From the NCBI GenBank assembly GCA_977018835.1, contig OZ361258.1, positions 1,178,001-1,242,000 on the forward strand: a stretch of 64,000 bases of DNA. Direction: 5' to 3'. Positions within the stretch are counted from its first letter, which is position 1, and every line of letters begins with the position of its first letter. Source of the DNA: Minutocellus sp. GHC0000111. Lineage: Eukaryota. Under the pieces are notes generated by a model. That model was not told where the DNA came from. It searched no databases and saw only the letters and a program-made list of their open reading frames with translations. This document shows positions 1-62,750 of this stretch, in pieces. A program made the translations under genes and the position numbers.

Positions 1-2487
1 CGGGATGGACGACGGCGTTAGCAAAGTGTTGGAGGTTTGGTAAAGGCGAGAAAGCTGCCATGTTGGCCACGTGGTGGGTGCTACGACGAGATGATGGCCG
101 TGGGGGAGGGTTCCGATGTGGAATGTACCCTCGCTGACGGTATGATCGTCGTCGAGGTGGTTTGGCGGTCGATGGTTTGGACTTGCTTGTCGATTTTGCT
201 GGAGCTGGTAATGTTGGAGTGGTATCGATCGTTGGAGACTTGCGTTTACGTTGCCGACGGGAGGTGGGGGCATTGGAACTTTGATTGGATGTTACGACGG
301 TTGCATCGTCGTCATGATTATCATCATCGTCGCCGTTGGGCTCGTCTACTGCAGCCAAAGGATTGTAGTAGTTGGAAGAAACTGACGAGCGAGGTGGCGC
401 GTTGGATCGACGTGATCGACGGCTTTTAGTGGTGGCTGCATCACATGTGGAGGATTTTGCCACCCTCGGAGGTTGCTGGGGCTGAGGCAACGGAGCGTTG
501 GGGTTGGAGACAAGGTGACGGCCTACTTCAGTCTCGTTCATCTCTTCTACGTCGTCGTCCTCGTATTTGATTTTGTAGTACTTATGCTTCTTGTCAAATG
601 CAACGACTCTACCCTTGTAATTGCGATCTCCAAACACTTTGGCGACGATGGTACCGAGGCGGAATCGTTGGGAGTCGTCATCGTTCTCCAGCACCCTCGG
701 AGCTGCGGTTGTCTGCATCGTCTCATCAGAGGCGGAGGTGGCAGATTCTGCTGGGGTCGCGCTGTTGAAAATCTCGGAGAGCTTTTCTAAAGCTTGACGA
801 TGCTCGTCTCGAAGGGGAGCAAGGGGTGCCGCTGGATGTGGATTCTGTAGAGCGTGCAGGAGTTCATGAGCTGCGACTATTGCTGCATCGGCCGACGACG
901 TTTTGGGTACCGGAATCATTTGGGGAGCCAGACGAGTGTGTTACCAGTGCGTTCCGCCCGAGTTTCCTCAATCCAAACCTTGTAACACCGGTAGTGTTCC
1001 ATGGCTGGACCGACATAGTACCCATCAACGCCATGCGGGGACCAAGAGCCGCGTGCCGAGGGCATCTCGTGAAAGATGACCTTGCATCCGAGGGGGCCGA
1101 GAGGCGTGCGATTGAAATCAAAGCCGCCATTGAGTTGCTCGTACGCTGATAGTCGAGGGTTGACTCGGGATGCTCTCAGGAAATTGAGGGTCATTACCGC
1201 CTGCTCCAGCAATTTATCCCACAAGATGAGGGGAAAGTCGGGATCGGTACCACAGAGAATCGCAATGAAATGATTCTTAAAGGTTCGAATGGCTCGTTCG
1301 GCCGCATTTCGGCGGTGGGAGTGCGTTGGGGTCAATTGAAAATCTACATCCTTTTCTTCCATGAACTCCTTCAGCTCTCGACTCACTTCATTATCCAATC
1401 GTTGCAATTTTGGGCGAAATCCTCGCTTGGAGAGGTATTCGAAAATAGTTTGGTGCGCTCGGCGCATTTCCGTTCCCGATCGGCTTTTCATTGGTTCGGC
1501 CAAGATGCTGTTGGAGTCATAGTCATAGACGACCATTATGTACTGGTGGCCAGAAATAGACGATGCCAAGAAACGGCCGGGCTGATCTGAGAAGATCTGG
1601 CCCGTTATGTCATGACAATCAGCAAAGACATAGTTGGTGCGCTGTTGGTGTTGTGCCGGGTGGAGATCCTGCTCGGTTTCGTCCACCCCAGGGAGAGATT
1701 TTGGCGTAGCCATCGACCGTTTGGGCTTGGTCGACCTGATGTTCTTGCGCTGCTGGTCTAAGTGACCTTTAATCATCGGTATCGACTGTGGCATGTGCTT
1801 ACGTACAAGCTTTGATGTGAGGCCTGGCCAAGATCTATAAAATCCCGCATCGATTGCTTTGCACCAGGTAGATAGCTGAGGACTGCCAGCGCACCAATGT
1901 AAAAAGGCTACACGTTCCGGAACCGTCTCCTGGGCAATTGCGGCGTTGGCAGCATGTTGGATGACGTTGGGGCCGGGGAGCGGCGACATGATGGGCGAGC
2001 AATTAAGATCTACCATCCACAATTTCGTTGAGGGGTCTCGTTTACCTTGCAAAATGACGGTATTGTCCTTGGCGATGACTACCGAATCCTTATCGAAAGT
2101 GGCAATGCATCCATCGTCACACAGCTGCCCAATCGATAGGAGCGATGATGCCATATTATTGAAAATATAGGCCTTGCTAGCCGATGGGGAAACCCCAGGG
2201 AGGCGAAGCGTGGCCTCGTGGGTGTTCGTCATTGTGCTGTTATCCGGAAGGGTGACGCTGATAGGAATTGCTGTCTGTTGGACGTTGAAAATTGGGCCAT
2301 CGTACGATAGGTGTTGGGGCTTCTGGACAAAATGTCCCGTCGTTCCAGCATCTGCTGCGAGGACGATTGGCTCTTGAGTTGGAGGTTTGCTTTTTGACGT
2401 AAGAAAAGCTAACGAAGGCGGGGAGGAGGTGGATTCAGATGTGCTATCCTCTATTTTACACTGATTAATATCCACCGTCCCTCCCGC
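1..2487 (-). CDS. pol: Copia pol (protease, integrase, Tudor-like domain, linker to RT), with a 1-nt frameshift near 916
   Basis: ORF 916..2475 carries the PR and IN motifs. After AAA-TG-ATT at ~916 another frame reads IPVPKTSSADAAIVAAHELLHALQNP... and stays open to the window edge. Confidence 0.88.
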
Positions 2488-3758
2488 TCAGTTACGACGC
2501 GAGCTACCACCGCAAGGATTGCACTTGGTGGCGTTATCAACGTGGTTGGGCCCTTTGCAAGTGCATTCAAAGCTGGGGTGGTTGGACGAATAGCCGCACG
2601 TGTGACAATAATGGCCTCTGGGGAGGATCGACTGCAGTTCCCGCTTCTCCTGGCGGTTGAGGTTACGACCTTGGCCTGGGAAGTGGCCGGCGCCGTTCTG
2701 CTGGCCACCGCCGCGGTAGCCTCCACTGCCACCAGCATGGTTGCGTCCCTCACGCAGAACGCGGTTCTCGGCCTTGAGTGAAGCTATTTCTTGGCGAAGT
2801 TTGGCAATGGCATCATCCTTCTCGTTGCTCTTTTTGGCGAGGTTCGCCATCATGGCTTGGTTGGTCTTGAGGGCTTCGGTGGTGTCAGCCAAAAGGAGAT
2901 CGGCTCGAGAAAGAAATGGATCGTCCGAGGCCGATGAGGCCAAATTCGCGCCATGACATCCTGCCGCTTCGGTGGTGGTGTTGGCCATCTTCTTATCACA
3001 CCAATCGCGGAAGTCCGACTGCATGTTGGCCCACGTGCGTTCGGCCTCCGGTCTGTCGTCCCAATCCTCGCATGCCTTCTTTGCCAATGAGAACCTGCGC
3101 ACGGAGCGGCAGAACTTGGAGACCTTTTGCTTGTTGGTGAAGGGTTCGCCGGCCGTTTCAAACACCTTGAAGACTTTGTTGAACATGGCGATGTGGGTGT
3201 CGATGGGTCCCCCGTCGTGCTGCTTCTCTAATTCCTCCTTCTCAGTCTCGTTGAATTTCAAGTAGCGATCGGCAATGCTGTCGATGATTTGGCGGATGGT
3301 GACTGGCTGGAAACCGAGCATGTCATCTTCGAGATGATTGATGTAGACGGCGTCGATCGAGTCGAGGAGGAGATTCTTGAGCGCCGTGTTGACTTGCTCG
3401 CACAAGTTGCAGTGGCCCTTTTCGATGCAATGTCCCCGGATTGCACGATCGCGTTGGTCTAGATTGGCCACGGCGGGAGTGGTGGGGCTGGGGCCAGGAT
3501 TTGCCGGAGGCACATGTGGTCGGCCGTTACTTTTGGTGGTGTGTTCGGCATCGCTGACGACGAGGCCCAAATGGCCGAGGTTGTGGTCATTGCACCCTGC
3601 TGGAATGCTGGCCGCCGCTTGTTGAAGTTCCTTGAGAGCGCTTTGGCAACACGCTCGCGTTGGGGAGGTTGTCCTGGGTCATTCACACGTGTGATTAACT
3701 TGGTGGGGAGAATCGGCGCTGCGCCGAGAGGTTGGCCAAAAACTGCGTCGGGATTCAT
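2488..3758 (-). pseudogene. gag: Copia gag, degenerate (frameshift near 3640, apparent Y->C/H substitutions)
   Basis: ATG at 3758 (MNPDAVFG..) shifts frame into LKELQQAAASIPAG..LGHLGLVV. The C-terminus has a zinc-knuckle-like YCHTCG...HPSFEC....H..NAT..NPCGGS. Confidence 0.8.
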
Positions 3759-4042
3759 GCTGGTGTTTCAGTCAGCGAAGACAGGCAGCACGGCGGTGTT
3801 GCTGCGAGAGACGTGTGATCGACAGAAGGTTCGATCCAGAGAAGTGTGATCGATTGGATGGGTCGATCTGGTCAGGACTTTCGGGGAAGGGATTGGATCG
3901 TCGCTCCAACATTGTCGAAAGAAACGGTCGTTTTGGCCGATTGAAGATGTGTCGGTTTTTCTTGCGTGACGAGTGAGTTGAGAACCCAAGACAAACCGGT
4001 GTGAGGTGCGAACCGAAATGGGGCGAGCACGGGTGGAAAAGA

Positions 4043-4253
4043 TGTATCACGTAGGTCTGCTAAGAGGTCCTAAAGCTAAGCTAGATAGATATAGCTAGTA
4101 GAGGTTAATAGGACCTACGTAGATGAAAAATGGGCCATCGGAGATGTCGTTGGCCCATGGATCAACGGTCAGGAGAGGGCACTGAGTCAGTGGTCTGATC
4201 ACCGTACGTACCGTACGTATGTATACGTACGTACGTATCCCATGGTATCAACA
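4043..4253 (-). repeat. Putative 5' LTR (inner boundary uncertain)
   Basis: Minus strand begins TGTTGA at 4253. The segment is TA-rich (TACGTA/TAGCTA runs), and composition changes sharply near 4045. The partner LTR is not in the window. Confidence 0.55.
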
Positions 4254-4492
4254 AGGATGTGCAAGGGCAAGTCCACCATTATATTTGGTGTTGGAGACAC
4301 ATGCTTCGACGACGGCCCAGCAGAAAGAAGTACATAGAGCAAGTATGTAGATAAGCGATTGTAGATCCGAGCACTGCTCTATGTAATAAGCTATCACCAG
4401 AAACTGCAGCTTGGTCGTTGTGATCTTGCAATCTCCTGCTCGCTCGTTCGATAAAAAGACACCCGGAAGCAAGAAACCGTTGCAAGCTGTCT

Positions 4493-4566
4493 CTGTTCAT
4501 AGCCCTGGCCGACCACTAGGCCACTATCCGGATGATGGCCTAGTGGTCGGCCAGGGCTATGAACAG
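4493..4566. repeat. Perfect 31-bp inverted repeat (hairpin/palindrome) with 12-nt loop
   Basis: CTGTTCATAGCCCTGGCCGACCACTAGGCCA (4493-4523) is the exact reverse complement of 4536-4566. Confidence 0.97.
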
Positions 4567-4668: not shown

Positions 4669-7600
4669 ATGTCTTCGGATGGTGCCAGATGTCGCAGCAG
4701 CGGCGGTGGCCATTCATCATTTGACGAGGAGCAGCAACGCCGCCAAGCCGGGACATCACCATCATCATCGTATCTTTTTCAAGGTGGCCGTACTGGAGGA
4801 CGAAGATCATCGTTTCCAGAAGAAGATACCGTTGAAGGCCGTGGCCGACGACGACAAAGCAGATCCAAATCTCCAGGAAGATACCATCGCCCCCACCATT
4901 TCGGCAGCCGCGATGAGCAATCTTCGAGGCCGAACCGCAGCCGCAGCCAGAGCTATGACCAATACGCCTCCTCGTCCCGCAATCCACACAACTACTACTC
5001 GAACCGCAGCCATGACGAGCAATTGTCGGGCAGCAGCCGAAGCTACGGTCGGCACTCCAACAAGCGCGTCAGTTCGGACCGAAGCCGTGATGAACAATCG
5101 TCGGAGCAGGGCCGCAGCCGTAACCGCGATCGACACCCCTCGGCGCGGAAGAGCAGCAGCGGCGGCGGCAGTAGTGGGCTAGACCACGAACACTCAACAG
5201 CGGGGCAAAGATATCGGCCCCAGGCATCTCCATGTGGTCCGCCTGCACTGCATGGTGGACACGGTCACGTACACCGTTCTACGCCATACGCGTCGGCCGG
5301 CACAACCTCCGCCTCGGCCGTATCTTCGTCCCAACGCACTGCTTCGGCCACTTTGGCACGTTTAGCGTCAGCTCCCACAAGGCACAATCTTCACGATCCT
5401 CTCGTATCACTACAACGGAATGGCGTCAGGACTGATATGATGGCCTCCATGGGCGTCGATGCTAATAGCCGTCTACTGCGATTGATGATTAACGTGAGTT
5501 TAATTTGTTTGTTCACTTCCTACTGCGTAGCGAGCAACGTGGTGTCTTCACATCATTGCGCATGCGCATTGCTTTCAAGCAAAAGTTCTAATGTCCATGT
5601 CCGGCTTGCTCTTCTTTTTCTTCTCCACAGATCGGTAATCCCTCGATAATCAATGCTGTTTTGAATTGGGGTTCTCAGGAGTCGTCGGCGGGGGCTTTTC
5701 GTGAAAACAGCAACATTCCTGGACTCATTGCAACTCGGCTCAGAGATGCTGAAAAGCATGGGTGCCGCAAATCCCTCCCGGCGTCGATGAGAATCTCATG
5801 GCCTCCTTGGGCATCGATGATAACTACAGGATACTGGGCTTCATGGCGAGGGTGAGTTTCATTGGTTTTCTGACTACCTGCATTATTGCATTACTGTTTC
5901 TTTCGACCCAAAATACTAATGTCCGGATTGCCCTTCTTTCTTTTCGTTCCCCCATAGATCGGTAATCCCTCAATGATCAACGCTGTTTTGGGTTGTGTTT
6001 CTCGGGATGTCTCGGTGGGAGTTATACGAGGAGACAACTTTGCTGGCATCATTATCGCTCGGCTCAGCAAGGAGGCTGAACGAATGGCAGTGAGTCATAG
6101 TACCAGTGGGCCCAAGATTGTGTCTTCCGACGCGGACAAGCAAGACTCGTTTGTTCTTCCCAGCGACAAGAGAAATGCCTCTGACAAAGCCGAATGCAAT
6201 GATGACTGTCCGTGTGGAGATCAACCCCCGCCCCAATCCAAAGCTTCTGCTAGTACAGTTACCGCCAAAGACGTAGCTAAGGCCGAAAAGACCCTGGAAT
6301 ATCTCGCTATGGATGGGCGTGATTTGGCCAAGGATGGCAAGTATATTGGCGTGCTCTTTGCCTCGGATCCCGGTGCAGTTATGACGGCGTTGTCAAATTT
6401 GCTAAAAGCCAGCGGTGGCGACGAGAAGAAAATCAACGCCTTGCTCTCCGCGGTACGTCTCTTCTTCCGTACGGCCGTGAAGAATTCAGATGAGAGAGCA
6501 AAGCTCCACGTCGATGCATTCGAGGCGAGCGAGGATGTGCGAGATTGCATGGAGAGCATCTGCCGTGATAACCCAAGCCTCGCCCCGTCATTCCAATCCT
6601 TTGGAGACAAACTGAAGGGCATGAAAGGTGTCTCAGCTCTCTTCATCGATGCTACGTTCAAGCCTATGTTTACCAAGATACTTCAGAAGGAAGAAAAACG
6701 CCGTGCCATCGAGCTTCGTCGTGCGGAGGAGATCGAACTTCAGCGCCTCGAAGCTGAACGTCAGGCTGCTGAGATGGAACGTCAGCGCCTCGAAGCTCAA
6801 CGCCGCGAGCAAGAGGCCAATGAGCGTCGGCGGGTGGAAGCTAAGAAACGAAAGGAGCTCAAGGAGCAGCGTATTGCAGATGAGGCTGCTCCCACAGAGG
6901 AACGCCGGGCCAAATGGACGAATGCGGCACAGAAGAAGCTACAAATGGTGGAGGAGGAGCTGACTATGCTCGAGACCGAGGAGGAAAAGTCCGTCGTTGC
7001 CATCAAGAAGCTGTCGGATATTCTAGACGTCATGGAGGAAGTTGCTAGTTCTGGTATTTTCGATCGGGAGCTGTTGGTGGGCACTAAGGTCCAACCTCTA
7101 TTCAGGAAAGTTGCGAAACGCCATTTGGATAGGAACTCCGATATTGGTGTTCGAGCGCTTGCCGTTTATGAGAAGATGATTGGCAATGAAAAGCAGAAGT
7201 CCGCCCTCGCTGTTGTGTCAAAGCCCAAGGCTGCCAAGCGTTCCTCGACCAAGTCAGCAGCACCATTGATCGAGAAGAGCAGTGGAGCAATGAATAGTCC
7301 AACCAAAAAGCGCCCTAGATCTCGGAAGCTACAGATATCTCAGCCCTCTTTGCCTCAGAAGGAGGAGAAATCGACCAAGAAGAGGAGCAAGATGGTTCAA
7401 TCTAATAGCAGCAGTACCGGTATTGCCGCTGCTGATCCTACCTCCAAGGCGCGTCCCACCTCCACTGGGAACAAGGGAAAGAAGAGGAGCGCGTCGGAGA
7501 GCAGCGATGAAAACAGCAGCAAGAAGAAGAGGAAGACGAACGACGAGAAGGAGAAGCACGCGTATGGCAAGGCGATGGATGAAGAAACCAAGCACCTTCA

Positions 7601-28510: not shown

Positions 28511-31315
28511 CTATTTATTAGAAGGATGACGAGCTGAGGGCTCCATCCCCTTGGCCGTTTCGTTGAAGTCGATCCTAATTCCAGTGTGCAAGTTTTCGTC
28601 ACCCAACCTTCCAACAAACTCATTGCTACCACCGGCCTTAATCACCAGGCCCATTATCCTCCAGTACTGAATGAAGGCCGAAGCAATTTTGCAGTTAGGC
28701 ATGCTATCGTAAACGTCCTCGGCAGTGTCCCAGATCTGGTCGGTGGAAATGACGGAGGTGCCTACCATTTTTCGTGCCCATTCCGAGTGCCGCCGGCTCA
28801 TCGCGGGGAACACGCTCAAGTCAAGGACGTTGGCGTGAGGCATCTGCGGTGCCTGTGGCTGCCACGTCCAGCCTTGCTCAGCACAGAAGTTAGTAACAAA
28901 TTGCGTGAAGGTTCCGTCCTCGTGAGGCCCGGCCTGGTCGCCCTGGATAATAACATGGCAATCTTCGTATTGCTTGCCCGGACCGACAAGGTTGAGAATC
29001 GCTGGGAAAATAGTCTCCTTGAATACGAGGAGCAAAGAGCATTTCGGATCCTTTTTGGTGCCTTCGTTCGATCCAGTAACGCAACAATCAACAAGAAACG
29101 ACTCTCCTTTCCGGCGAAGAGGTTCCTTTCGTGTCCCATCGGGGTTGGTATTTGGGTACCGTGTTGAACCATCAGGCTGTGATGCTGCTTCGTACTGAGC
29201 TCGCTCCGCTATTTTAGGAGCTTGAGCTCGTACCAGTGGCAGTTTTACAACCTCGCACCCACTCTCAAGAGAACCGTCAAAGACAGCGGCAACAAATGCA
29301 ATGGCCATGACCTTGTTGATGTGGCTCCTGCGAAAGGCCGCGTAATCTCGCTTTTTCACGCCGATTTCCTCGCAAGCCTTCGCAAAAGCTCGGAGGACGA
29401 GACCCCAGAACCATTTCTCATCGTAATGCACGAGGAGAACTCGCTTCTTTCCATTCGGTAAATTGCCGTTCTCATCCCGAATGTTCCAGAAATTCCGCAC
29501 GAGCTGAGCAAAGGCCAGATGCTTAGCTTTTTGAGCCTCCGACAGGCGCGGTACCAGCCGCTCCTTGTAGAAAGTGAAGGTGTCGAATGACTTGAGCCAC
29601 CGCTCCCACAGCTGCTTGTCATCGTCGCTGATGGTGTCGTACTCGGCCAGGTACGTTTTGAGCAACTCATTGTCAGCCTCCTTCGATGCAGAATCATAGC
29701 AGTCTTCCTTTGCCTCTCTGCACTTATTGATTGCATACAGGCGCTTAGCAGCAAAGTACTGCTCAGCCGTCTTGTAATTGTCAATGGTAGACTTTGGCCG
29801 AACCGACGAATCCTTGGGAGCGGGGGTGACAAATGCAAGCTCGGCCTGATCTGCTGGCATGCCCCGGGCAATGGCATTCTTCCGAGACTCGTTCTGGATG
29901 TCTCGCAGCCCATTCTTACCCTTCCCCCACGCTCTGCAGAGCTCACGAATAGTGACCCTCCCATCCGACTGAAACTTCTGCGATGAACTGTTCCTACTTG
30001 AGTGCTGCGTCCCTCCGGTGCTCTTCAAATGCACTTCCAGAAGCAATCCCTGGGCAAAAAGCATGCTCTTGTCCTCGTCGTTCAATCCCTTCTTGCCTTT
30101 GGTTGCTCGATTCGCCTCCTTTCGAAGACATCCATCCTTCTTCCTGTGTCGCATGCCATGCAAAAGCTTTCCGACAAGAGTCTCCATCGGACTGCCATCG
30201 CTCTTTGCACGCTTGTTGGCACCGGCGCTGTCAACACCATCCATCCCCGCCTGAGCAGCTGCTGTCCGTTTGCGCCTGTCCTTGGCAATTGAATCGGTGT
30301 TGAGGCCGAGTGGGATCGGGGTGATGGCCTTGAGAGGCACATTCTCATGCATCATGCCACCAAAAGGCTTCTCATGCTGGACATCGCAAAGAGCACCTCC
30401 ACCGACACCTCGACTGACCACAACAAATCCCTTGCCCTCAGGCCGATTCATGTTGGGACTGAAGTCGGCAGACACAAGGACATGTTCCCCAGCACTGATG
30501 GCAGGTCGCATGTTGTCTTCCATTCTCATTGCTTTCTTGCGTTCGGGTGGTGCATCCGTCGGCATCCTGTGCGACCGAAGATGTTTTCACGCATTTGTGC
30601 CCTCTGCTCCAAATGACGCATCGCCTCCTTCATTTTGTTCCTTTTCTTCTCGGCATCGACCATGGCCTTTTCATCCTTCCGCTTTTCTCGTTTCAAGGCA
30701 TCCCTTAGCCCTTTCAAAGCCTCCTCTGCAGCTTTGTGTTGCGCTTCGGCCTCAACCAGCAGCACATCCAAATTCTCCTCGGTCGATCCACCAGAATTGG
30801 CGGTGCCGGCAGCAGAAACACCGACACTGGCAGGATTGCCAGATTCTTCACTGTTGCCGCTTCCATCCACCACCATGGACTCGGCGACGCCCCCAGCTTC
30901 GATGTTGTCATCACCAGGACGAGCAGCGATGCCTGCCAGCATTGTCCTCGACCGTCGGCTCAGGGCTGGCATCGGCGTCATTGGATGACGAATTGCGCCG
31001 AGCAATTTGAATTTGAGAAATCGGCACATCTTGTGCCGGATCAGGACCGGTCTGGCTCGGACAGCACAGCTCCTCCTCTCGGGCTTGCTCCACAATATCC
31101 TGCTGTTTCTGAAGTGAGAGGCCCGTCCATGCCCGGTTCGCTATGGTCTGGATCATCCCAGGAGACTTGCCACGAATCGTAGAGGCATCGATGGTGCCGC
31201 TCCGATGGACAAAACAATCAAAGCATGGGATGGAGCTGCCGGACCGACGGGAGCGGCGACATGCTGGCGCATCAGCTGCGGTGGCAGCAGTAGTAACAGC
31301 CATTTGCATTAACAT
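28511..31315 (-). pseudogene. Mariner-type transposase with a long, frameshifted and hypermutated N-terminal region
   Basis: Three overlapping ORFs (30911-31315, 30526-31095, 28511-30565). The last has an intact D..D38D triad. Confidence 0.85.
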
Positions 31316-39682: not shown

Positions 39683-39994
39683 GTTAGTTATTAATAGGTC
39701 ATAGACAACCAATCGAGTTCCTTTCGTCCTCAAGTTCAAAAATAAATGCCGGCTAGCTAGGACTCCTTATTACATGTTTAGTTGAGCAAATGTAACCATA
39801 AACTTGTATTGAGGAGTGGATTAGTCTGTCTGTCATACCGACGCCAGTCGCCCACCGCAGGATCGCTTTGCCTTCCTCCACAATGAGATATCTCTGCTTC
39901 GTCTCGGCGTCTCGCTCGGCATAGCCTGGCCAACCAGCAGTGATACAAGATCCACATGCGTCTGGCAATAAGCGCAGAATTCACTTATAATAAA

Positions 39995-42889
39995 ATGGGC
40001 GAGAAGTCAAATTGGAGAAATATAGGAAATTGCATTCAAAGCATGATGACACGCATGAGGAGTAGGGGCGAAGTGAGGAGCAGTGTTGCTCTCCTATCAT
40101 CTTTGCTGTTGCTCCTCATCATCTTGGATCCAGCTGCCGATGCCTTCTCCGTTGCATCCTTTACTGGTGCCTACACGAACATACCTCTAAGTGCGCGTTC
40201 CTTCGCCAGGACACATGGGATTCCTACTTTATCGAATAGACACCATGTGCCGATGCCATCATCGAAGCTCTTCTCGTCCCTCACCGACGAGACCAATGCG
40301 AGCGACGACGAGGCCGGTTCGTTCGATCCCGATGCCGCCGATCTGACCGAGTCGGAAATGGCCGCGGCGGCCAACGATCTGGTCCGTCTTTCCGGCGGTG
40401 GTTCCGGCAGCGTCGAACTTCCCGACGAGATATCGCAGTCCTTCCTGCAGTACGCCCTGAGCATCATCCTGGGCCGGGCCCTGCCCGATGCCCGTGACGG
40501 ACTCAAGCCGGTCCATCGGCGCATCCTGTACGCCATGTCCGGCCTGGGCCTTAGCCCCTCCAGCTCCCATCGCAAGTGTGCCCGTGTCGTTGGCGAAGTG
40601 CTCGGTAAGTACCACCCCCACGGCGACATGGCTGTGTATGATGCATTGGTCCGCCTGGCGCAAGATTTCAGCACCGGCACTCCCCTCATCGATGGACATG
40701 GGAACTTTGGCTCGATCGATAACGATCCCGCCGCCGCCATGCGATACACTGAGTGTAAGCTGACCAAGGTTAGCAGCGAGACCCTGCTGGAGGATCTGCA
40801 TTCCGACACCGTCGACTTCATCCCCAACTTTGACGGCAACGAGATGGAGCCCACCGTCCTACCAGCGAAGTTGCCCGTACTTCTTCTGAATGGGTGTGCT
40901 GGGATTGCCGTGGGGATGGCCACCAACTGTCCGCCGCACAATCTGGGAGAGCTGATGGATGCCTGCATCGCCCTGACGAAAAGTCAAGAGGAGGAGGCAC
41001 CGGAGGTTACCGACGAGGCATTGTTCCGCTTGGTCCCAGGTCCTGACTTTCCAACTAGCGCGCTCATTATTGGTACCGATGGGGCCAAGAAGCTGTACAA
41101 GACGGGCAACGGCGGCGTCGTTATGCGAGCCGTGACGCAAGTAGAGCAAATCGTCACTGGAAGGGGCAAGGCACGCTCGGCTATCGTGGTGACCGAGCTT
41201 CCCTACCAGGTGAACAAATCCGCCCTTCTAGAGAAGATTGCCGACCTCGTCAACGACAAGAAGCTCGAGGGGGTGGCCGATCTGCGCGACGAGTCCGATC
41301 GAGACGGCATTCGGGTCGTCATCGAGCTGAAGCGAGATGCCGTCCCCTCCATCGTGCAGAACAATCTCTTCAAAAAGACGGCGTTGCAGACTACCTTCAG
41401 TGGCAACTTCTTGGCCTTGATGGGCGGTGGGACCGTACCGCAGAGGTTTACTCTGAGGGGCGCATTGAATACCTTTCTGGATTTTCGCTTCGAAACGATC
41501 CGAAGGAAGAGCGCATTCCAGCTGAAAAAGGTCGAGGCTAGGGCACATATCGTTGAAGGTCTTCTCCGTGCGTTGGAGTCGGCCGACGACGTCATCGAGC
41601 TGGTCCGATCGGCACCAGATCAGGCCCAGGCTAGGGAGGCTCTCATGGCCGAAGATGGGAAGGGTGGACTCGGTCTGACCCGAGACCAAGCCGATGCCGT
41701 CTTACGGCTTCAATTGGGACAATTAACCCGCCTCAATAAGGGCAAGCTTCTGGAGGAACAGCAGACCCTTGCCACGTCACAGGCTGAGTTGGAGAAGCTT
41801 CTCACCGTCGATGGTGCCGTCCGAGACCTAATGATCGAAGAGTTTAATGAGAGCAAGAAGAAGTATGGCATCCCACGAAGGACGAGGATCCAACCCGAAG
41901 AGGGTGAGCTCGAGGATGTTGATTTCATCAAGAATTCTCGTTCGGTTATTGTGGTTACGAGGGGTGGCTACATTAAGCGAATGCCCCTCAAGACCTTCGA
42001 GAGCCAGCGGCGTGGTACTCGGGGCAAGAAGGGAACGTCCAGTGCTTCCGAGGACAATGAGGTGATGCATTGCTTCACATGCAATGATCATGACACATTA
42101 CTAATGACGACTCAGCGAGGCGTTGCCTTTGGATTGCGAGCATTCCAGGTACCCACAGGAACCAGGACAGCCAAAGGTGTCCCAATCCCCTCTGTTCTTC
42201 CCGTCAAGTCAGATGATGTTATTACCTCTGTGCTTACTGTATCGGAATTCTCAGACGACGAGTACGTGGTCCTAGCAACAGAAAATGGATACATCAAGAA
42301 GACTCCGCTTAAAGCTTTCGAGAAGCTAACTTCTCGCGGTCTCATCATTGCAACACTTGGCGAAGGTGACCGGTTGGCCGGCTGCCAGAAATGCACGGAC
42401 GACGATGACATTCTCATCGGTTCTAAGCTTGGAATGGCAACGAGAATATCCGCCGAGAAGCTCCGGCCCACGGGAAGGACGAGCCGGGGTGTAATCTCCA
42501 TGAAGCTGAACGAAGGCGATAGGGTGGCCGACATGAACGTCTTGCCAGCGGAATCGTCCGGATACGCCCTAGTGGTGACTTCGAGCGGATATGGAAAGCG
42601 AGTTGACACGAACGAGTTCCGAACCCAGGCAAGAGGGGGGAAGGGAGTGATCGCCATCAAATTCAAACAGTCAAACTCGGACGATGAGGTCAGTTGTCTT
42701 CGCATAGTGGATGAGGAAGATGAAGTCCTTGTGATTACGGCAAAAGGAGTCATGGTTCGACAAAAAGTAAAGAATATTCCCAGTCAAGGCAGAGCAGCAA
42801 CCGGTGTCCTGGTTCAGAAGCTTGACAATGAAGATGCAATCGCCAGTGTTAGCCTCGTACCGGTGCCATCGTATGAGGATAAGGAATAG
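39995..42889 (+). CDS. gyrA: DNA gyrase subunit A, nucleus-encoded with plastid-type bipartite presequence
   Basis: [34 protein letters not shown] (catalytic Tyr), GyrA-box QRRGTRG and C-terminal pinwheel repeats. The signal peptide ends ADA|FSV. Confidence 0.97.
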
Positions 42890-60738: not shown

Positions 60739-62750
60739 TTAGAAGCACTTCCTGTGGACGATGGAGGGGCCGGACTCGTCGTACTCCTCCTTGCTGATCC
60801 ACATGGACTGGAAGGTGGAGAGGGAGGCGAGGATGGAACCTCCGATCCAGACGGAGTACTTGCGCTCGGGGGGTGCCACGATCTTGACCTTGATGGAGGC
60901 GGGGGCGAGGGCGGTGATCTCCTTGGACATGCGCTCGGAGATGCCGGGGAACATGGTGGTGCCGCCGGACAGGACGATGTTGGCGTACAGGTCCTTGCGG
61001 ATGTCGACGTCGCACTTCATGATGGTCTGGAAGGTGGAGTCGGCGATGCCGTCCATCTCGAGGCCGGTGAGGTTGGGCTGGAAGAGGACCTCGGGGCAGC
61101 GGAAGCGCTCGTTGCCGATGACGATGATGTTGCCGTCGGGGAGCTCGAAGGACTTCTCGAGGGCGGAGGACTCGGCGGCCTTCTTCATCTCCTCCTCGAA
61201 GTCGACGGCGACGAAGCAGAGGGACTCCTTAATGTCGCGGACGATCTCGCGCTCGGCGGTGGTGGTGAGGGAGTAGCCACGCTCGGTGAGGATCTTCATG
61301 AGGTAGTCGGTCAGGTCACGTCCGGCAAGGTCGAGACGGATGACGGCGTGGGGAAGGGCGTAACCCTCGTAGATGGGGACGGTGTGGGTGACGCCGTCGC
61401 CGGAATCGAGGACGCAGCCGGTGGTACGGCCGGAGGCATAGAGGGAAAGGACGGCCTGGATGTTGACGTACATGGCGGGGACGTTGAAGGTCTCGAACAT
61501 GATCTGGGTCATGCGCTCGCGGTTGGCCTTGGGGTTCTGGGGGGCCTCGGTGAGGAGGACGGGGTGGGCCTCGGGGGCGACGCGGAGCTCGTTGTAGAAG
61601 GTGTGGTGCCAGATCTTCTCCATGTCGTCCCAGTTGGTGACGATGCCGTGCTCGATGGGGTACTTGAGGGTGAGGACACCGCGCTTGGCCTGGGCCTCGT
61701 CTCCGACGTAGGCGTCGCGCTGCTCCATGCCGACCATGATGCCGGGCTGGCGGGCGCGGCCGATCAGGGAGGGGAAGACGGAGCGGGGGGCGTCGTCTCC
61801 GGCGAATCCGGCTGTTTAGTCATGTGGTCGTCGCGAAGGGTTTGGATAGGGACGGGTCCGGCGGGGTCATGACCAAGTAATGCATTGATTGCCAAGCCAA
61901 CAAATAAATACCGCATAATAAATGATGCATAGTGATTGTGCCCATATCAGTCAATTCAGGGTTCGTCGCAATCGCAAAATCAGATGCAATGCACCAGTCA
62001 CCAATGCACGGTAATCCGATAGCGAATAGCAATTGCCAAGTGGATCGGTTCGGTTCGGTCAGGGTCAACACGTGTGATCAATCATTCAATTGAGGGGCAA
62101 CGACGAACCGAGATAAATTATTAGCCGACAAACCGTCAAAAATGGAACCAAGGCAAGATACCGCGCGCAGAGAATGTGCCACGAGTTTGGGTTGGTGGCG
62201 ATTTCATGGTAAGTTCATCGTCAAAGAGAGAAGAGACAACAAGAGAAGGGGGGGGTGGAGGGTTGGGTGAGTGGTTGCTTTGCTTGCGTCGGCATTTTTG
62301 GTGGACGAGTGAGGTATATAAACTTTTATACGGATCTGAATATTTTTCAATGTTCGTTTGGTCCCGATTTTGCCTGATAAACGGCCATGAACGAGGGGAG
62401 AGGCTGGGGAGTTGTTGTTGTTGATCGTCCGCTCGGTGCGCTCAATGAAACGCCAACCATGGCGGCGGTGCAATGGGTACCGGGAGTACGATGGCGGTGG
62501 GGTGCGATGCTCATCCCAGGCTTGCGCATCGACTCAACAAACAAATCGTGCCAGTGAATGTTGATTCCCAGCAATGCCCACGATGTGCCAGTATCTCGTG
62601 CCCCGACAAAAAAATGCCCCGGACGACTTTCACTTCGTCGCGTCGCCCCAATCGGAGCGCCGACAACATACCGCATCATTTGCACTTACCCTTGCACATT
62701 CCGGAGCCATTGTCGATGACAAGGGCGGCGATATCCTCTTCGTCAGCCAT
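60739..62750 (-). CDS. ACT: Actin (377 aa); exon 1 62690-62750, intron 61812-62689, exon 2 60739-61811
   Basis: [35 protein letters not shown]...IVHRKCF, with a GTAAG...ACAG intron and strong codon bias. Confidence 0.99.

Follow-up and report, generated by a model that had tools for sequence, protein, structure and literature searches.

Does a small domain carried between the integrase and the RT of a copia retrotransposon read a histone mark, and would it bias where new copies land? The question is raised by one end of a 64,000-nucleotide stretch of Minutocellus sp. GHC0000111 (contig OZ361258.1, positions 1,178,001 to 1,242,000), called here the window. A sequence-only reading of this DNA had noticed a Tudor-like domain at 512..664, had likened it to PTM/DIR17-type Tudor domains with aromatic cage residues, and had proposed a copia analogue of the gypsy elements whose integrase carries a chromodomain. 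Elsewhere in the window, actin (60739-61815, minus strand) and gyrase A (39944-42889, plus strand) were recognized by eye, the latter with a plastid-type presequence, a type assigned to window genes by motif.

Structure of the element

The leftmost 4253 bases of the window contain a minus-strand LTR retrotransposon, of which only the 5' part is included; its parts are as follows.

4058..4253 (-): 5' LTR, 196 bp, TG...CA, delimited by contigs that end loosely at 4253 and at 4058 with differing flanks, a depth drop past 4253, and sequence
4049..4057 (-): primer-binding-site position, complementary to LTR-internal 4112-4120, with no TGG start
2488..3678 (-): gag, degenerate, assigned by position and a C-terminal Cys/His cluster, with no Pfam match above cut-off
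919..2487 (-): 5' part of Pol with protease, GAG-pre-integrase, DDE integrase core and SH3-like domain, from frames and Pfam
916..940 (-): one-base frameshift at about 918 that parts the integrase from the linker and Tudor domain, in the window copy only, from contigs and from relatives P0003-P0006, which read through
668..916 (-): conserved block of helices that follows the SH3-like domain of the integrase; beyond it, low-complexity linker with a PRV motif at its end
512..667 (-): Tudor domain of PTM/DIR17 type, 52 aa, within the Pol linker between integrase and RT, from Pfam, AlphaFold2, Foldseek and VIA-align
2..511 (-): linker, disordered, that holds a second PRV motif and Arg/Lys clusters, with AN motifs immediately ahead of the RT block, which starts at the window edge

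The 5' LTR has the TG...CA ends of an LTR; the 3' LTR and the target-site duplication are beyond the window. The RNA folds back over the primer-binding position (-22.5 kcal/mol, a value with no shuffle control), and self-priming of the element through the complementarity of 4049-4057 and 4112-4120 is possible. Gag and pol share one frame with a single TGA (2488-2490) between them, which suits read-through or a separate start. In the 5' part of Pol, the Pfam matches to SH3_retrovirus (E 0.0045) and DDE_3 (E 0.038) are both below cut-off, and what we take to be the protease was assigned by motif. The Arg/Lys clusters of the linker at 2..511 are possible nuclear localization signals. A perfect hairpin with 31-base arms (4493-4566) stands in the flank next to the LTR; because a contig of sequencing run X2 at equal depth has 22 other letters in place of 4481-4566, it looks like a small polymorphic insertion.

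The Tudor domain belongs to an open frame (2-940, minus strand) that continues past the left window edge; its last residues within the window open the RT block, and the RT itself is outside. The frameshift ahead of it escaped the sequence-only reading: contigs of all eight sequencing runs compared (sponge and marine metagenomes, coded organisms) have one base more at about 918 than the window copy. The window copy is broken by this frameshift; intact relatives of 1399 aa keep the Tudor domain in frame, and one DNA contig covers 224-1300. In run X2, the word depth is 5,400-7,500 on the collapsed element contigs against 85 on the flank; this depth is not a copy number, but taken with a protein cluster of 113 members it suggests tens of copies. 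Since the depth of the Tudor contig (5,389) is like that of the rest of the element, most copies carry the domain. An intron or spliced-out insert was ruled out, as no contig joint skipping the Tudor domain occurs in the eight runs and RNA-library contigs (X10, X7, X9), which are evidence of presence and no proof of transcription, span it. A nested host gene or an assembly chimera was likewise ruled out by the in-frame position of the domain in intact Pols of four 90% clusters.

The class of the element is given by its intact relatives. P0004, P0006 and P0301 have the order integrase, Tudor, RVT_2 (E 1e-5 to 7e-7, below cut-off; P0338 is above it), that is, the Ty1/copia (CoDi-like) order PR-IN-RT-RH with an RVT_2-type RT. 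The integrase precedes the RT, so the order is not the RT-RH-IN of gypsy. The earlier placement of the domain in a copia Pol, between integrase and RT, is confirmed by these three proteins. Named relatives of the Pol come from Phaeodactylum tricornutum and Fragilaria crotonensis; with the plastid-type presequences of window genes, they give the host a diatom-like appearance.

Copies of the family bear the marks of TpA to TpG/CpA mutation. Among the listed transitions, which come from the 40 differences listed out of 80, 27 of 37 are in a TA context, against 20% expected. The hypermutation extends over window 1-4253 and is strongest in gag (2491-3700), where the observed/expected ratio of TA is 0.27, compared with 0.49-0.64 in most other blocks. 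Conserved tyrosines were changed in 149 of 361 observations, 147 times to Cys or His (15 listed family proteins: P0003, P0273-P0286). In some copies the hypermutation hits cage tyrosines of the Tudor domain; in the window copy it hits only a non-cage tyrosine (586). A like signature is described in Bigelowiella in the available part of one report (10.64898/2026.01.13.699255). In the same window, a 691-codon frame (28511-30586, minus strand), which by eye resembles a DDE DNA transposase, has a low TA ratio of 0.41 and His/Cys at likely Tyr positions.

Identification and fold of the Tudor domain

The 51-residue peptide quoted in the sequence-only reading is reproduced exactly by translating 512-664 (minus strand). 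The domain begins one codon before it, at about 667, a point which that reading missed. By Pfam, the peptide is a member of PF21743 (PTM_DIR17_Tudor; E 3.5e-14, 52.8 bits against a cut-off of 27.2), the match spanning peptide residues 4-48 and profile positions 1-45 of 48. Weaker matches are to LBR_tudor, Tudor_3 and SGF29_Tudor. No Chromo family is among the Pfam matches of the window peptide at E ≤ 1; the integrase C-terminal chromodomain that is a trait of chromoviruses and of CoDi-A is absent at this threshold, and PF21743 is found instead.

An AlphaFold2 model of the domain, with 44 relatives in the alignment, has a mean pLDDT of 86.7 and consists of four long strands and a short C-terminal helix. 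The top Foldseek rows for the model are Tudor domains (LBR, SMN, PHF1, PHF20), with a best E of 8.8e-3 and none at or below 1e-3. VIA-align gives Z-scores of 6.3-6.4 for the Tudor domains of SMN, PHF19 and RDM15; a PWWP domain ties with them, and these scores have no power to tell Tudor subtypes apart. The predicted structure is confidently a Tudor/SH3-like beta-barrel, and the assignment as Tudor comes mainly from the Pfam score. A phmmer search of the PDB with the bare peptide gave nothing relevant. With a profile from the 44 relatives, the best solved matches are the LBR Tudor (E 1.1e-4) and the RDM15 Tudor (7DE9; E 2.9e-4), LBR outranking RDM15 as a sequence match among solved structures. 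Both the Tudor-like assignment and the PTM/DIR17 type are upheld by the Pfam score and the modeled barrel, and the Pfam search and structure prediction that had been proposed as a check give no refutation on fold. Fusions of the same Tudor type also occur in P0223, P0263, P0139, P0188, P0203 and P0255, with a serine resolvase, with an RdRP, with 5-hmdU DNA kinase helical domains and with an OTU protease as partners; the one with the resolvase may be another mobile-element capture.

Distribution among copia Pols

The Tudor domain is confined to few lineages. PF21743 is present in 4 of the 120 closest Pols listed (the best 120 of 993 passing), and a profile of the four Tudors scores above 0 bits in none of the remaining 116. 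In the survey across copia families suggested by the sequence-only reading, the domain was found in two lineages and was lacking in 116 of the 120 closest Pols listed; because of these 116, the Tudor domain is not needed for transposition. The window groups with the four Tudor Pols in one clade (support 98; in a second tree, 100 for three of the four), which is nested among Tudor-less elements and whose sister clades have no Tudor domain. PF21743 also occurs in P0338, a distant full-length Pol, as a domain of its own that occupies the equivalent place and is about 39% identical to that of the window; the nearest relative of P0338, P0339, has none. A single clade of all Tudor-bearing elements was rejected (p-AU 7.8e-7) with 40 of 123 Pols picked to span the tree, integrase and RT columns, and an LG+G4 quick tree; repeated capture, module swapping and many losses all still fit.

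Among the best 150 of 319 Tudor relatives, six have copia flanks at E ≤ 1e-8, P0218 and P0128 being of the window's clade and P0207, P0222, P0269 and P0252 of others. Four more have such flanks at E 0.002-0.03; P0123 clearly belongs to the window's clade, and P0196, P0201 and P0243 are tentative. A scan of metagenome contigs gave one locus from 589 pattern matches, L001, which is a Tudor-less relative. The Tudor domain of each lineage is nearer to some domain not labeled as element-borne (44-57%) than to those of other lineages (35-46%). This identity pattern fits separate captures, but a tree built from 142 Tudor-domain rows and 54 columns has no resolution in its branching order.

Linker conservation and Pol processing

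In the window's clade the Tudor domain is placed between two PRV motifs, and the rest of the linker varies in length and content. A [P/L]RV motif occurs at least once, and usually twice, in 118 of 121 integrase-RT linkers (P0003-P0340), which are otherwise unalignable; it may serve in host binding or in processing. The Tudor domains of P0004 and P0006 are 65% identical and their two long linker parts 35% and 42%; against P0301, the Tudor domain is 81% identical and the two parts 42% and 52%. Selection on the Tudor domain is suggested by this excess of identity over the long linker parts. The same pair, P0004 and P0006, is 73% identical in the RT, 84% in the integrase core and 64% in the 25 residues after the Tudor domain; that the domain falls below RT and integrase, and is matched by the residues following it, is counted against a role in targeting.

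These values bear on the explanation that the domain is a neutral passenger, a host exon caught in a tolerant linker and functionless. Its absence from sister clades, the high variability of the linker and the loss of cage tyrosines to TpA mutation in family copies are all in keeping with a passenger. However, across relatives that are only 73% identical in RT, conservation of the domain clearly exceeds that of the long linker parts, its pocket is kept, and the lineages that carry it, at least two, cannot form a single clade. The tyrosine losses are copy-specific and found in decayed genomic copies. A neutral passenger is the least probable of the explanations considered here.

AN motifs cluster before the integrase start and before the RT. 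In the last 45 residues before the RT they are about six-fold enriched (0.019 versus 0.0033 per residue, 121 Pols), and 71 of the 121 Pols have one; between integrase and Tudor domain, none occurs in any of the four full-length Tudor Pols checked. The distribution suggests that the AN motifs are likely cleavage sites, which would leave the Tudor domain and the basic clusters on the integrase.

Predicted methyl-lysine pocket

The available part of a structural study (PMC8184781) describes how the RDM15 Tudor domain binds H3K4me1 through a cage of W616, Y623 and Y641, how D643 and D645 select the mono-methyl state and E647 and Q654 hold H3R2, and how residues around the cage set mark specificity. 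Alignment to the RDM15 complex (7DE9) places the predicted pocket codons, jointly spanning 545..634, as follows.

632-634 (-): predicted pocket codon F, at RDM15 W616
617-619 (-): predicted pocket codon Y, at RDM15 Y623
563-565 (-): predicted pocket codon Y, at RDM15 Y641
557-559 (-): predicted pocket codon D, at RDM15 D643
551-553 (-): predicted pocket codon D, at RDM15 D645
545-547 (-): predicted pocket codon E, at RDM15 E647

Of the seven residues with which RDM15 reads H3K4me1, five are identical in the window (Y623, Y641, D643, D645, E647), one is changed conservatively (W616 to F) and one is different: Q654 lies beyond the printed alignment and by counting corresponds to a V that adjoins a conserved E. 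The modeled domain superposes on 7DE9 with Z 6.3 and an rmsd of 2.4 over 54 residues, while overall identity to RDM15 is about 20% and the loop is two residues shorter. RDM15 is an Arabidopsis host RdDM factor, whereas the Tudor domain of the window is part of a mobile element. The three-residue aromatic cage of an RDM15-type reader is thus predicted, with a conservative change at its first position, in agreement with the cage that the sequence-only reading had proposed; the aligned aspartates correspond to the pair that selects mono-methyl-lysine. The two aspartates and the glutamate, on which that reading did not remark, point to a mono-methyl-lysine reader and not a heterochromatin reader.

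The pocket residues are retained across 15 element-borne Tudor domains: the F and both aspartates in all 15, the residues at Y641 and E647 in 14 each, and that at Y623 in 10, the other five having H or W. They are kept equally in 127 non-element domains; being family signatures, they are no proof of selection within the element.

Because W616 is F and Q654 is V, mark specificity may differ from that of RDM15. One alternative is broad nucleosome binding or the reading of another mark (H3K9me, H3K27me, H3K36me, H4K20me1 or unmodified H3), which would raise integration efficiency or steer the element to repressed chromatin as in chromoviruses. The change of W616 to F widens or alters the cage, the surroundings of which set mark specificity in the available account (PMC8184781), and the LBR Tudor is the best-scoring solved match. 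However, just one of the sequence matches has been solved as a complex, and in it the paired aspartates favor a lower methyl state rather than me2/me3; this alternative appears quite improbable.

A second alternative is that the Tudor domain binds a methylated non-histone partner, either a host factor of silencing, RNA processing or import or a protein of the element itself. Its role would then be in the assembly of particles, in nuclear entry or in evading silencing, and not in target choice. In fold, the domain resembles both histone readers and methyl-arginine readers (SMN, TDRD3); PF21743 relatives adjoin RdRP, OTU, RCC1-like and resolvase domains, and not chromatin domains only; and two positions that contact the peptide in RDM15 differ. 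On the other hand, the D-x-D-x-E motif, which in RDM15 selects mono-methyl ammonium and H3R2, is kept, and the position of the domain is that of integrase-borne chromodomains. A non-histone partner is considered unlikely, though less so than another mark.

Proposed function

The best reading, held with modest confidence from the predicted pocket and the position of the domain, is that of an integrase tether which reads a lower-methylated lysine and biases insertion, binding being a prediction. The Tudor domain sits in frame in the linker that joins integrase and RT of a CoDi-like copia element, and was probably captured from a host chromatin protein. Kept on the integrase after cleavage by the protease, it would bind a lower-methylated lysine and tether the integration complex to marked nucleosomes, so that the landing sites of new copies would be biased. 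H3K4me1 is the best candidate ligand, but a tentative one. We know of no retroelement reader that uses this mark. A literature search found no H3K4me1 map in diatoms, the material found, as far as available, covering only H3K4me2 and H3K9me2. The broader proposal is that one host Tudor type was acquired several times, each time independently, by diatom copia elements as an H3K4me1-reading integrase tether, aimed at a gene-associated mono-methyl mark and not at heterochromatin; it is possible but rather doubtful. Precedent for targeting comes from gypsy chromodomains, which steer integration in MAGGY (cited in the available part of 10.1101/2021.11.30.470311).

Relation to known elements

Reader-bearing LTR elements were already known; here the reader is a Tudor domain in copia. 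The novelty implied by the sequence-only reading is accordingly smaller than stated: as far as the available texts tell, a putative chromodomain at the integrase C-terminus of the diatom copia element CoDi-A was described in 2009 (Llorens et al., 2009; PMC2774666), and a C-terminal Tudor domain in Gypsy-10_Ec32 of Ectocarpus, termed the first reported TE with a Tudor domain, in 2025 (PMC12477816). CoDi-A is likewise a diatom copia element with a Royal-family domain at the integrase C-terminus and a proposed independent capture, but the window has a PF21743 Tudor domain with no Chromo match; the two are set apart by description, and the "putative chromodomain" could conceivably be related to the Tudor domain of the window. 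Gypsy-10_Ec32, also compared by description only, resembles the window element as a stramenopile LTR retrotransposon with a Tudor domain behind the integrase. It is, however, a gypsy element with the domain at the Pol C-terminus, whereas the window element is copia with an internal Tudor domain between integrase and RT. The Ty3/gypsy chromoviruses (MAGGY; Gao et al., 2008, as cited in the source available) share the principle of a histone-mark reader fused to the integrase for target choice, but belong to another superfamily and use a chromodomain for H3K9me heterochromatin, while the pocket in the window resembles that of a mono-methyl reader. A catalog of 823 TE-chromatin fusions consists, in its available part, mostly of PHD and Chromo fusions (Grau-Bove et al., 10.1101/2021.11.30.470311). 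The literature search found no copia element with a Tudor domain, though one may be among the 823 listed fusions.

Copia elements make up most of the mobile DNA of diatoms, according to the available part of PMC2806351. A small single-domain reader with a predicted pocket bears on what sets their insertion sites. The presence of the Tudor domain in one clade and its absence from the sister clade allow a direct test of targeting. If H3K4me1 proves to be what the domain reads, this would be a natural module for targeting an integrase to that mark, and copia would join the stramenopile elements that keep capturing chromatin readers.
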